DNA from: Eledone cirrhosa
Lineage: Eukaryota
NCBI GenBank assembly: GCA_964016885.1
Contig: OZ024753.1
Span: 46,252,001-46,316,000, forward strand
Direction of reading: 5' to 3'
Length of the DNA: 64,000 nt
Shown piece after piece: positions 1,764 through 28,857 of the stretch (the first letter of the stretch is position 1; every line of letters begins with the position of its first letter). A model generated the notes under the pieces. The model made no database searches. It was not told the DNA's origin and was given only the letters and a program-made list of their open reading frames with translations. The position numbers and the translations under genes were made by a program.

Positions 1764-1766
<3 letters not shown>

Positions 1767-1866
1767 GGAGGTGAGTTTTATTGTAGTACAATAAAGCAAT
1801 GCAGGTATCGGATAAGTAGCACTCTACAGTTTGTAGGACTGGAGTATAAATAATATATAAGATCAA

Positions 1867-1933
1867 TTTTATTATGCGCATTTCAAAAACAAATATCATC
1901 ATGCTATAACATTTGCGTTTTCGTCAGATAAAA
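1867..1933 (-). ncRNA. Type I hammerhead ribozyme motif (left arm)
   Basis: Minus strand reads TTTTAT-CTGACGA-AAACGCAAATGTTATAGCATGATGATATTTGTTTTT-GAA-ATGCGCAT-A-ATAAAA: intact CUGANGA and GAAA core, 6-bp stem I, long stem II, palindromic stem III and an AUA cleavage triplet. Confidence 0.75.
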
Positions 1934-2486
1934 AAGGGACATGATATGAAGGTTAAAACAAATTTGTGAATAGTGCAGTTTTAAATTAACATATGAAAAG
2001 TAGTTTTAGATTGATGTGTGATATTGGGAAAAAAATTGAGGGGGGGAGGGGTGAAAAAGAGGAGGAGATGAGAGTAAAAAGTGAAGGTGGGGGGAGTATA
2101 ATGAGGAAGGATGAGATAGGAGGAGAGATGGGTGATAGAGAGAGATTTTATTCTAAAATTTTTCTCTTCGTTAATTTTCAAATTCTTTTAATTTATATAT
2201 TATCTTCAAACGGTTTTTCAACCTCTCTATGTAAAACAATATATTTTTCTCAGTTATAAAAGCTATCTCTCTCTCTCTATCACCCATCTCTCCTCCTATC
2301 TCATCCTTCCTCATTATACTCCTCCCCCTCCACTTTTTTACTCTCATCTCCTCCTCTTTTTCATCCTTTCCAACCTCCCCCCTCAATTTTTTTCCCAATA
2401 TCACATCAATCTAAAACTACTTTTCATATGTTGATTTAAAACTGTACTATTCACAAGTGTGTTTTAACCTTCATATCATGTCTCCC

Positions 2487-2557
2487 TATTTTATCTGACG
2501 AAAACGCAAATGTTATTGCATGATGATATTTGTTTTTGAAATGCGCATAATAAAATA
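2487..2557 (+). ncRNA. Type I hammerhead ribozyme motif (right arm)
   Basis: TATTTTAT (2487-2494), CTGACGA (2495-2501), stem II 2502-2537 (15 of 16 positions pair counting G-U, loop GCAT), GAAA (2538-2541), palindrome ATGCGCAT (2541-2548), A2549, then ATAAAATA (2550-2557) closing a perfect 8-bp stem I. Predicted cleavage after A2549. Confidence 0.82.
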
Positions 2558-2587
2558 CATGGAACTCTTTTAACCATCTTTTGATCT

Positions 2588-2637
<50 letters not shown>

Positions 2638-9559: not shown

Positions 9560-9645
9560 TGCTAGGGTGATTGTGTGTCTTTTCTTGATATATATATATA
9601 TATGTATATATATATATCAAGAAAAGACACACAATCACCCTAGCA
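9560..9645. repeat. Inverted repeat with perfect 28-bp unique arms centred on a (TA)n tract
   Basis: tgctagggtgattgtgtgtcttttcttg-(TA)n-caagaaaagacacacaatcaccctagca. Confidence 0.95.
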
Positions 9646-12727: not shown

Positions 12728-12900
12728 AATGTAATCAACTTTTCAAGAAACCTATATTACTATCCGTTGCTACCTGTATCGGTGAAATACCAGTGTTTTT
12801 AAAGTAACAGATAACATATCTGATGTTATTCGCTCCGAATCTGTGTACACGGAGTTCAAATCCCTCAACTCTCAGTTTGCTTTTCATTCTTTCGAGATCT

Positions 12901-13796
12901 ATTATATAATGTGGTACTCTATGGCTAATCACCCGACCACATCTGATTATGAAAGTATTATATAATGTGGTACTCTATGGCTAATCACCCGACCACATCT
13001 GATTATGAAAGTATTATATAATGTGGTACTATATGGCTAATCACCCGACCACATCTGATTATGAAAGTATTATATAATGTGGTACTCTATAGCTAATCAC
13101 CCGACCACATCTGATTATGAAAGTATTATATAATGTGGTACTATATGGCTAATCACCCGACCACATCTGATTATGAAAGTATTATATAATGTGGTACTCT
13201 ATGGCTAATCACCCGACCACATCTGATTATGAAAGTATTATATAATGTGGCACTCTATGGCTAATCACCCGACCACATCTGATTATGAAAGTATTATATA
13301 ATGTGGTACTATATGGCTAATCACCCGACCACATCTGATTATGAAAGTATTATATAATGTGGTACTCTATGGCTAATCACCCGACCACATCTGATTATGA
13401 AAGTGTTATACAATGTGGTACTATATGGCTAATCACCCGACCACATCTGATTATGAAAGTGTTATACAATGTGGTACTCTATGGCTAATCACCCGACAAC
13501 ATCTGATTATGAAAGTGTTATACAATGTGGTACTCTATGGCTAATCACCCGACAACATCTGATTATGAAAGTGTTATACAATGTGGTACTCTATGGCTAA
13601 TCACCCGACAACATCTGATTATGAAAGTATTATATAATGTGGTACTCTATGGCTAATCACCCGACCACATCTGATTATGAAAGTATTATATAATGTGGTA
13701 CTCTATGGCTAATCACCCGACCACATCTGATTATGAAAGTGTTATATAATGTGGTACTCTATGGCTAATCACCCGACAACATCTGATTATGAAAGT
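12901..13796. repeat. Minisatellite, 16 x 56-bp unit
   Basis: Unit attatataatgtggtactctatggctaatcacccgaccacatctgattatgaaagt; 896 bp = 16 full copies with a few recurrent variants. Confidence 0.97.
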
Positions 13797-14539
13797 TTCA
13801 ACGTGTTATGGAATATGATGAGCATCTTCTAATACAGTAGAAAGATGATGACTATGAGTATGGCGATGTTGATAATGAAAATGATAACGAAAATGATGAA
13901 ATTGATGGTGGTAAACCGTGACATCAATTTGATCTTATGCTGTGTCCTCTGAAAGTAAATTCCTTCTATAATCTAACAGAATATCGTCATACTCATTTTT
14001 GGTTCCACAACAAAATTCGGATTTATTATCAAAAATAAATACCTTCACTAGACTTTTCATCCAATAAATTATCTTTATTTTAATTATTATACTTCGTTGA
14101 ATAAATGATAATGTTTAGATTTCTCCCTAAGTTCTTTCATTGTTTGGCGCCCGTCTCTACTTTTTATTCGTGTCAATGAGAGGGAAATTGTCCATTTATG
14201 TACGAAAAAATTGAATGTAATTATTAAGATTTATGCTTTTTTTTATTGCGAGGAAAATTTATTAACGTAAATTTTATAAGAAATGAAATAAAAATTAAAA
14301 TAATTTCGACTGTTAAAAGTAAGATGTCAATAAAAGCAACGAAATTATTTTAAATTTGATTTTTTTTAAATATTTTACATACTGAAATAGATATTATTAG
14401 ATTGTAAAATATTTATTGGAATATATTTATCAATACTGCGAGTTGAACTGAATACTTTTTATTGTTTTAGAAATTTGTATTCACAGATACTTTTAACCTT
14501 AGTTATTATCTTTCCTCCAGTCCAATATTTTTTTTATAG

Positions 14540-14594
<55 letters not shown>

Positions 14595-14599
<5 letters not shown>

Positions 14600-15760
14600 A
14601 TTTTAAGATATTAAATAAATGGAAACTATATTTATAAAACCATATTTATTCTATTATATATATTTCAGGGGTACCAAAACTTTGGTACGCTCTCATCAGA
14701 TAAAATACAAAGTTTGTTTTATAAATGTTGACATAACCAAGAAAAGATACCTTAACGGTTCAAGTTTTTCTTGGATAGTGAAGGAAAAGAGAAGAAAAGT
14801 CAGATATTTCAAATTATTAAGATGAATATGCAAATGAGGTTGAGGTATAGGGCTAAAAAAAACGTTATTTTTAGACGCTATGCAGAATTTAAATAATTAG
14901 AATATATGTATGTATAAGTAGGAAGAAGAAAAAAGAAAGAAGAGCTTGTATTTACGTTAATTTAAAAGGATTTAACAATTTGCGTGAATGGTGGAATATG
15001 ATTCCAGAATTTAAATTTATTTAGCTATATTATGAGTTATAATATTGTATATATAATCAATTAGATTATATGAAGAATTATGGTTGTAACTAGATTTTAT
15101 CTTATTACATTACAACAGGTTGTAAGTATATAAATATCTATATAGATTAATAATTGTGCATGTATAAGTATTATAGAAATAGAAATAAGTTACAATTATT
15201 AGTTGTTTACATTTCTCATATGAGTTACGAAGGATATTGATTCTGCATCTTACATAAAGAACACGTAGTTCAAATTGTAAGAGGAGAACAATTTGTAGAT
15301 TTAAATATGTTGTTCCAACATTGAAAATGTTTTCAGAATATTGTTAATTTAGCGAAGTTATATAGTTTATCATACATATATTATAATATAATGTTTATGT
15401 TTGCCTGATTGAAAAGGAAAAGATAACTCCAATCTTGTATGCTAACCGTTAAATTTGATGAATGATTTACTCAGAGGATATATAGAGAAAATTATATATT
15501 ATTTTGTGAGAGATTAATTTTAATTATATATTATTTTAGATTTGTGAAAGTTTGAAGAACAAAGAAGAGGAAAAAAGTAATGTGCATTTCGAAGAACTAT
15601 CGTAAAGAGGATAAACTTACAGAATGTCAATTAAAGATTATCAATCTACATCTAAAAAAATATATTTCGAGGGGTATCATTAAGAAAATAATGTCAAATG
15701 GTAAAAATAGTAAAAATATTACAAAAATATTACAAAATTAAGAAGGAAGATCATTTAAAA
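14595..15760 (+). mobile_element. Decayed Penelope-like retroelement: RT C-terminal/thumb remnants on plus, hammerhead-bearing terminus inverted at the left end
   Basis: Plus-strand translation with stops and frameshifts gives FRRYAEF (~14868), WNMIPEFKFI (14992), YNQLDY, HKEHVVQIVRGE (15253-15288), CSNIENVFRILLI*RSY (15311) and LLRGY (~15470). These resemble the PLE motifs RY.DD, N..HP.IKFT, FLD and H.K..I..GE..R..RICS...F...L..RGY. Hammerhead at 14647-14707. Right boundary approximate. Confidence 0.55.
14647..14707 (-). ncRNA. Type I hammerhead ribozyme motif
   Basis: Minus strand reads TATTTTAT-CTGATGA-GAGCGTACCAAAGTTTTGGTACCCCT-GAA-ATATATAT-A-ATAGAATA: 8-bp stem I (one G-U), stem II core GTACCAA/TTGGTAC, palindromic stem III and an AUA triplet. 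Confidence 0.8.
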
Positions 15761-16125
15761 AATTTAAATTTAATTTTTTAAAGAAAGTACTCAGTAAATA
15801 ATAGGATCATTTTAAATGTGTGTGTATCTAGAGAGAACGAGACAGACAGGTGAGTAAGTAGGTAGGCAGACAACCAGAAAAATAGACAGCAGTATAAGCA
15901 TACAATTAGATGTTTACATGTAATGGAGAGTTAGCGTGAAATATAGAGATACAGATATAATAAAGTTATGAAGAAATCATATATTAAATAAATATGTTAA
16001 ATATAGTGATGGGTATATGAATGAACGGTTAGTTAAAGAGGCACATTGTGCCATTGTACAGAGAACAAAGCCAGTTATATTCTTCATTTGATCAACGCAC
16101 ATATATATATATATATATATATGGA

Positions 16126-26630: not shown

Positions 26631-28857
26631 CATTAGCACTGTATTTTGCCCTTGACAAAGTTACATGTCTCTCGACATTCTGATATTTATTAGATTAATA
26701 CACTGAGCCATTAATCTATATTTAAAGTTACAATTGTTTAGCTGAAAGAAGTTTCCCTACTTTGACATAATACACGAGAATGAGGTTGCCTTATAGTGCT
26801 AAAATTAGTCAAGTAGACGCTATATTAAGAAGTGTTGTGTTCCACTAGTTTTATAAGAATACTCAGCTCCATTTCTCGTGATCTCACATTTTAACTTTAT
26901 CTTACATTTCAAATTTTCTTCTCACTTTCTAACACCCGCCGCCATTCTTAATCGACATCCCCCTCCCCCAAAAATATTGTTGGCTTTGTGCCTAAATCAG
27001 AAACAATTATTGCATAACAACTATAGCTGTTGCCTTTAAATAACAGTGAGAAACATTTGAAAGGAGTAGTCGTTAGGACTATACAAATATTTATTTAAAA
27101 GTGAATATTTAAATAAATATTAGCTACAGATTTCTAAACGTTTGGCTTGGGAAACGAATTAATTTGGTCGATAGAAGTAAATATATATGTCTGGTTTATA
27201 GAAACATATGAGCTAGTTCCGGGAATGTGAATTTCCGAATAATGCTAGACAATGTCATGGAATTACTTGCTGATATCAAGATTAAGGCATTGCTTTAGCT
27301 GCAACCACAAAGCCGTATAATATTTGTACGTCGAGTATGGAATAGGTCAACAGTTACATATACAAACTTACATCACATAATGTAAATTTGGCTTACAATT
27401 CTCTCCCTTTTCTCTCTCTCCATACATACCTATATATGTGTGTGTTCATACACACACTTACACACACACACATCAACATACACAGATGCGCACACACATA
27501 TATATATAATATTTATGTAATAAACAACATAAGATGATTATTTCATTTACCAGTGGTTTCTTGAAAGCAAATAAATCTGCTTTCAGTCGTCAGAACGACT
27601 ATATATATGTATATATATATATTTATTTATTTATTTATGTGTGTGTGCCTGTGTTAAAGAACACATGAACCCATATAAATATAGATGTAGGTAATTTTGG
27701 TAGTTTTGTTAATATCCCTGTAAAATCATTCGATTATCCATTCAGGATGATCTGATCGGAATTATCCTATTTCTACCATTTTTTCTCAACGTTCCACTCC
27801 ATTCAACCAATTTTATTGTACTCGTGATGTTCAATATAAACTGTCCATTTGCCAGGAATGTCTCGTTAAATTCCACCATTAAACAATAAACGTGCTCAGA
27901 TTTGCCAAAGCTTTAATCCTATCTATAATACCTTTTAAAATGAATGGTGATCTTCTTTAGTGTTTTTCTGGTGTTAGTCAGTTAAGGAAATTCTACAAAG
28001 TTACATTCAGTACATTAGCCTTTATGCTGTCTCATTAGTCTCCGCCTTTAATCTGCTTTCCTTTTCTCCTTCCTAGCAAAATGCTAATTTCTTCTGTTAC
28101 TCTTTCTCATGATTTAACCCAATCACATACACATATACACACATACATATATATTCATATATACATATGCATACATCTATACAAACGCTAGTCATATATA
28201 TATATATATATATATATACGCATGTAAAAAAAACGAGCGTGCGTAGAATACTGCAGACATAAGAAGCATAGCACGTGAATAGTTCTCGGCATTGAAAGAG
28301 CTACACAGATCATTTACACACACAAACATACACACACACGTTCACGCAGATACATATACAAAGGAACAAATCCGCGCGCACACACATATATATATATAAA
28401 GGCACGCACACGAACGCATAGACACACGCACACATGTACATATATATATATGTATATATATATGTACATAGATATATACATACAGATGAGGGAGAGAAAG
28501 AGACCTCTCTAGAGAGAGACATGGGTACAGCTAAACAAATATATATTATGAGCCGTGCACCATTGTACATGACTGCATATTAATAGCGGTTTTAACGAGG
28601 TTTACCTCCATTCTTCTAGCAACTTGTAGTGATATCGGATTGGCTTTTGTCAATAAATCAACAACACTATGTAGCAATCCTCGTTATAAGCTCAGACGTG
28701 AAGTCCTCGTCGCAATAAAGTGTCAAGAGAAAGTAGCTGAAAATAGACTCTATATAGATTCATTGTCGGCCAAGGGGACATGACACGCATACAGAAAATG
28801 AGGGGAAACGGGGAAAGAGAGAATTAACACTACATATTTTTACACATACACACTCCT

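Follow-up and report, generated by a model that had tools for sequence, protein, structure and literature searches.

Among C-terminal EN+ Penelope-like elements (PLEs), hammerhead ribozymes have already been published for the Hydra clade, including Hydra-1_Obim of Octopus bimaculoides (PMC8557442), and section 11 of that study (Craig et al. 2021) gives the Hydra-clade motifs that also occur in the ORF of the element family described here (family B). The same paper states that the role of the hammerhead in PLEs is unclear. In other sources, PLE hammerheads are described as weak ribozymes acting as dimers (PMC4209133; review PMC6765202), and a PLE origin has been proposed for the non-LTR retrozymes (PMC7229834; bioRxiv 10.64898/2026.07.22.740005). 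As for abundance, published figures are about 9,000 hammerheads in Xenopus tropicalis (PMC4209133), 126,247 in axolotl (PMC7229834), and 235 hammerhead 1 loci detected by Rfam models in giant squid (PMC6962438).

In the 64-kb stretch of DNA analysed here (the window), we have characterised a hammerhead motif, HH3, on the minus strand. The features of this locus are as follows.

14595..15821, minus strand: copy of PLE family B, 5'-truncated, 3' UTR only (by homology to other copies)
14544..14594, no strand: (TA)n run adjoining the family-B 3' end, putative insertion target
14647..14707, minus strand: HH3, type I hammerhead motif (descriptor match, strand-wise reading)
14707-14700, minus strand: 5' strand of stem I, TATTTTAT
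14699-14693, minus strand: core CUGAUGA
14692-14667, minus strand: stem II, 26 nt, GTACCAA/TTGGTAC enclosing a 4-nt loop
14666-14664, minus strand: GAA
14663-14656, minus strand: self-complementary stem III, ATATATAT
14655, minus strand: A17
14654-14647, minus strand: 3' strand of stem I, with one G-U

HH3, a hammerhead motif with predicted cleavage, lies close to the 3' end of a truncated copy of a Penelope-like retrotransposon and is made up of an 8-bp stem I, the CUGAUGA/GAAA core, a long stem II, an 8-nt palindromic stem III and an AUA triplet, and fits the type I core rule (CUGANGA, GAAA, UH). Its three helices, with helix I open, are backed by covariation, and the window copy has one extra mismatch. 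Stem II runs G-U, A-C, G-C, C-C, and then 7 pairs and the 4-nt loop; that is, the G-U and the two mismatches, A-C at pair 2 (14691/14668) and C-C at pair 4 (14689/14670), fall within the first four pairs. At the place of the canonical loop 2, this class has no loop beyond pair 4 and shows a conserved mismatch instead. The cut is predicted between 14655 and 14654 on the minus strand. The initial annotation had described a hammerhead on the minus transcript here, with this cut and with two mismatches at the base of stem II, and the strand-wise reading agrees with it on each point. Since it has no partner in cis and carries the extra A-C mismatch, the window copy is probably catalytically inactive, and is in itself an ordinary truncated relic.

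The element that carries HH3, a known kind of element, had been left unnamed. The window copy begins about 27 nt past the ORF stop of longer family-B copies, and we regard it as 5'-truncated because other copies extend further upstream. It has an 8-nt insertion and ends 60 nt beyond the predicted cut, where this distance is 52 nt in others of the family, and it is without the 94-nt tail, which is present in 20 of 44 distinct family-B ends; a TA run adjoins 35 of the 44. A similarity search with 181 nt around HH3 gave 1,782 first-look candidates, and 40 scored places were 97–100% identical, while the exact stem II pattern of family B has 3,008 genome matches (control: 0). In the window, no coding remnant of a PLE was found and tblastn was empty, and the flanks at 13900-14545 and 15822-16100 showed no other match among the fetched loci.

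Longer family-B copies have an upstream ORF of roughly 750 aa encoding RT and endonuclease, with the motifs RRLRW, DKT, YRDD, CxCX5C, YIG and CxxC..E..N..CxH. None of the copies examined has this ORF unbroken, and two Pfam scans, one with 5 proteins and one with 3, matched no RT, GIY-YIG or endonuclease family. The 17 homologues retrieved bore no names. One longer copy is a head-to-tail unit (L214), in which two same-strand hammerheads lie 3,640 nt apart around the RT-endonuclease ORF, in the order hammerhead, 52 nt, 94-nt tail, 43 nt, ATG, ORF, 3' UTR, hammerhead. Its ATG is 189 nt downstream of the predicted cut, and its direct repeat measures 349 nt at 98%. In tandem units, the hammerhead sits between the 3' UTR and the leader of the following unit.

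The traits of Penelope-like elements are present in copies of the family other than the window copy: by its motifs, the single ORF holds RT followed by a GIY-YIG-like endonuclease, and there are pseudo-LTRs, partial tandems and inverted 5'-truncated copies (L209 and L210 are inverted). There is also a sense-strand hammerhead within the pseudo-LTR. Regarding the traits of the Hydra clade, the RWK site reads RWR in family B, RWI/RWT in family A and RWK in L172; DKT replaces DKG in both families; the linker CxCX5C, with CxxC and CxH around E and N, is present, and CCHH is absent. The unit of 3,640 nt exceeds the "generally under 3 kb" of the clade, which is a general trait rather than a strict criterion. 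The family-B protein is, by eye, colinear with the Hydra-1_Obim protein in the supplement of PMC8557442. By these motifs and this comparison by eye, the carrier of HH3 is probably a Hydra-clade PLE.

In addition, families A and B have two fixed 3' ends each, about 50 and about 146 nt beyond the cut, and TA-like microhomology is present at both. An ACTCCAG...GAGTGCT motif and a further hairpin are common to the tails of the two families (L214, L215) and are possibly signals for the protein of the element.

Three other hammerheads are found in the window, two of which belong to family A.

1765..2590, no strand: inverted pair of family A 3' ends between TA runs, tail on one side only
1863..1937, minus strand: HH1, family A hammerhead, stem III ATGCGCAT, C-U mismatch at pair 4
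2485..2559, plus strand: HH2, family A hammerhead
27538..27603, minus strand: HH4, hammerhead of a different class, with 9-nt stem III ACCACTGGT and GUA triplet, in a short high-copy repeat

Family A is a sister of family B (proteins 36–59% identical) and has tandem units as well (L205, L206, L215). An unbroken 800-aa RT-endonuclease ORF of family A lies between inverted ends at L213:1492-3891, with no Pfam match. The likeness that had been proposed among the first three motifs needs correction, since HH1 (core at 1927) carries TTTTTTAT, not TATTTTAT, and the core of both HH1 and HH2 is CUGACGA; in addition, there is a fourth hammerhead at 27593 minus. Likewise, at least two subfamilies had been suggested within 13 kb. 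The families are indeed separate, but there are three of them within 26 kb rather than two. Stem II, which had been called unrelated, is not so: families A and B are homologous PLEs with a common stem II layout of 3 pairs, a C-pyrimidine mismatch and more pairs.

HH4 has its core at 27593 on the minus strand, and its stem I is degraded at the junction in the window copy. The repeat that carries it gave 1,066 first-look candidates, often close inverted pairs, and a Hydra-like ORF was seen in 0 of 20 HH4-type loci. The published Hydra hammerheads, in the 26 rows of PMC8557442, resemble HH4 (AC...GU stem III, GUH triplet) and not HH1–3. As for other parts of the window, a 56-nt tandem repeat (about 16 copies, about 96% alike) occupies 12900-13796, and a 56-nt array is likewise found at L217; a near-perfect inverted repeat with a TA-run centre lies at 9560-9645; and the segment 26150-26620 resembles, by eye, a decayed 3' LINE fragment, presumably of RTE type. 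The repeat search of the window was swamped by TA runs, and miRNA matches were rejected as TA-run artefacts.

It had been suggested that the two stem II mismatches may be decay. This holds for the A-C at pair 2, which, among 43 distinct copies of family B retrieved through DNA similarity, is seen in the window's own alone. It does not hold for the C-C at pair 4, which is found in 38 of the 43, with 3 copies paired, and is kept across families, so that decay is rejected as its cause. In 20 family representatives, stem I pairs 1–5 are paired in 20/20 and stem II pairs 1–3 and 5–6 in 18–20, with several pair types, while pair 4 is paired in none (16 C-C, 4 C-U). These representatives stand for 18 of 30 clusters, plus 2 from another search. 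The 12 omitted clusters have one or two members each and were taken, on inspection by eye, for mutated versions of included families. In 8 of them, pair 4 is without C, and 5 of these had been found by a search requesting non-C. The C-C is also kept in more remote families, whose stem I differs and whose proteins are 30–71% identical to A or B.

Across the genome, C occupies pair 4 in 95.4% of 55,848 strict matches. Of the other 2,595 matches, the 100 listed have the appearance of members of these families that have been damaged, and the 4.6% of non-C copies fit neutral decay. A pattern one base shorter finds a purine partner at pair 4 in 839 matches, and about 30 of the 100 listed form a small C-A subfamily, which means that the partner is not always a pyrimidine. 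Overall, as judged from aligned copies, the C mismatch at pair 4 is a conserved trait of the source elements and not decay, and it may serve tertiary docking or protein recognition.

In a 21-row alignment, two-sided changes were found in 14 of 17 pairs, where shuffling gave 7.1 on average and slid controls no more than 7, though the shared ancestry of the families makes the shuffle counts overstate independence. The catalytic core is invariant in all 21 motifs, partly by match selection, and the NUH triplet is kept. The claim of a conserved structure with covariation thus stands, on the 20 representatives and the two-sided pairs. The argument for selection that had been drawn from three motifs was insufficient, as only two of them are independent; it is the genome-wide set that shows selection.

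A further regularity concerns stem III, which is self-complementary in 100 of 105 distinct copies, with the centres ATAT, GCGC, ATGT, GATC and ACGT. For HH3, a monomer is predicted to form 2 bp and a tetraloop in stem III, and a dimer 8 bp. Since the central pair of stem III can form only between two motifs, the dimer model is supported. We assign a probability of roughly 0.75 to the reading that the hammerhead belongs to the terminal repeat of a Hydra-clade element, where it would cleave, as a dimer, tandem transcripts into unit-length RNA, with a truncated lone copy in the window. Judging from the motifs and their arrangement, cleavage as a dimer is likely in the tandem elements. A read-through transcript of a tandem element would carry two hammerheads, whose palindromic stem III strands would pair so that each core cuts the AUA of its partner, and the two cuts would free a unit-length RNA beginning 189 nt ahead of the ATG. 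This RNA, a ligated circle or an uncut longer transcript would then undergo reverse transcription at TA runs that the endonuclease has nicked. Because genomic copies run 52 or 146 nt beyond the cut, the template would have to be circular or uncut. The C-pyrimidine mismatch, placed where the canonical loop 2 would begin, may dock stem II on stem I.

Several observations count against the dimer. Besides the extension of genomic copies beyond the cut, the family-B partners are 3.6 kb apart in tandem, and their palindrome duplex is weak (predicted -3.2 kcal/mol). In addition, within 3-kb loci, same-family neighbours are always inverted and never on the same strand. The tally of these loci, which counts overlapping ones twice, gives 15 divergent, 3 convergent and 8 same-strand pairs (all of different families), and 63 single motifs; tandem units were found only by choosing likely places.

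The single motif in most loci and the pair-4 mismatch kept across families would suit cleavage by the monomer, in which a tertiary contact through the C-pyrimidine mismatch stabilises the 2-bp stem III fold and the palindrome is secondary. There are also precedents in PMC7229834, namely axolotl HHR_Amex2 and invertebrate hammerheads with a 2-bp stem III and tetraloop. We nevertheless consider this unlikely, for the centre of four bases has kept its self-complementarity in at least five different sequences, which is needless for a monomer loop, and the prediction for the 2-bp hairpin on its own is +4.7 kcal/mol.

Less probable still is that the motif is a recognition or primer-handling signal for the RT/endonuclease, or a passenger, and hardly cleaves in vivo, if at all. 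All examined copies end 52 or 146 nt beyond the cut, so their templates include that sequence, and the literature reports both poor cutting of PLE hammerheads in vitro (PMC4209133) and the spread of Naiads without canonical hammerheads (PMC8557442). Against this stand the invariance of the core in the 21 aligned motifs, which is partly due to match selection, and the retained NUH triplet.

We can practically dismiss that HH3 is a chance match in AT-rich DNA, despite the absent Rfam hammerhead and the weak folding z-score, since the shuffle tests, the strict genome matches (0 in the reversed control) and the fixed position of the motif within a retroelement all speak against it. In the window, the general descriptor gave 4 matches (cores at 1927, 2495, 14699 and 27593), while the shuffled mean was 0.023 and the maximum 1; there were 300 dinucleotide shuffles each of two kinds, whole-window and in 500-nt blocks. 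A tighter pattern gave 3 matches against 0 in 100 shuffles. The initial annotation was therefore right in arguing against chance, and a covariance model also bears it out: built from 11 other families, with A and B excluded, it scores HH3 at 64.6 bits (E about 1e-15, by rough calibration) and also recovers HH1 and HH2. An Rfam search of 14500-14850 found no hammerhead at E up to 10, and among 150 of 284 matches listed for the whole window there was none either. This reflects model coverage and is not a defining property of the hammerhead class. Minimum-free-energy folding of HH3 does not give the hammerhead shape (z -1.47), which is predicted at -3.0 kcal/mol against a minimum of -11.4 kcal/mol.

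The host genome measures 2,996 Mb and is rich in microsatellites, and its features may point to an octopus-like animal; the genome of axolotl is about tenfold larger. For the HH1–3 class, a looser pattern has 112,229 matches in the host genome (control: 132), one per 27 kb, all these genome counts being pattern matches rather than curated ribozymes. It predicts about 2.4 matches per 64 kb, with 3 observed, and the clustering in the window is therefore ordinary. The pattern of the second, HH4-like class has 19,799 matches (control: 1,930). In metagenome contigs, the strict pattern has 0 matches. In some families (L140, L024), a second CUGANGA within the stem II loop leads to nested pattern matches. 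Different hammerhead-bearing families often lie 0.3–1.5 kb apart (L023, L076, L087, L138, L140), a spacing that would fit successive insertions at shared TA runs. Set against the 235 Rfam loci of giant squid, the 112,229 matches suggest that most such ribozymes escape standard annotation.

Dozens of related families are available here, and their natural covariation is deep. They include young tandem units and at least one 800-aa ORF without a break (L213, of family A), and their palindromes range from weak, as in HH3, to strong, as in HH1. Owing to these, the dimer model and the role of the mismatch become directly testable. Only tentatively, and with more doubt than belief, we suggest that the AUA triplet, the 8-nt palindromic stem III and the C-pyrimidine mismatch at pair 4 define an undescribed subclass with a new tertiary contact between stems I and II. 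If true, a 3-Gb genome would hold more than 112,000 copies of a ribozyme that Rfam does not pick up at the HH3 locus, a load that would rank with the densest known for ribozymes, and some of the hammerheads may cut host transcripts.

Compared with known systems, the element agrees with the Hydra clade in its single RT-EN ORF with RW(K/R), DKT, CxCX5C, CxxC and CxH and no CCHH. It also shares with the clade a hammerhead on the sense strand close to the 3' end, insertion at TA runs, truncated copies in inverted orientation and a tail at one end. It differs in the unit of about 3.6 kb with a 3' UTR over 1.1 kb (the clade being generally under 3 kb), and in the tail of 94 nt, where PLE tails are described as 30–40 bp. 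In File S2, each of the 26 Hydra rows shows AC...GU in stem III and a GUH triplet, whereas AU...AU and AUA are found here, and the pair-4 C-pyrimidine mismatch was seen in none of these 26 rows. Family B is not the Hydra-1_Obim family. The metazoan PLE hammerheads of Cervera and de la Pena 2014 (PMC4209133) are likewise of type I with a long helix II and palindromic helix III; they also form many sequence families per genome, mostly as single motifs on truncated copies, and opposite-strand pairs 100–700 bp apart. Unlike in those, the unpaired base between A9 and 10.1 is absent here, the pair 10.1-11.1 is A-U, G-U or G-C instead of a conserved G-C, and the count is over 112,000 against that given for Xenopus tropicalis. 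Animal non-LTR retrozymes, as described in PMC7229834 and bioRxiv 10.64898/2026.07.22.740005, are similar in their very many type I hammerheads and dimer cleavage. They are, however, short non-coding tandem repeats of 150–450 bp, while HH3 belongs to a protein-coding element with no short array; a retrozyme tandem array was rejected for HH3, a lone copy of a coding 3.6-kb element. Neither the variant form nor the count of 112,229 was found in the literature searched, and published work beyond it, supplements included, may already show the variant. Overall, the element and its ribozyme are of a known kind, and what is new to the searched literature is the structural variant and its copy number.
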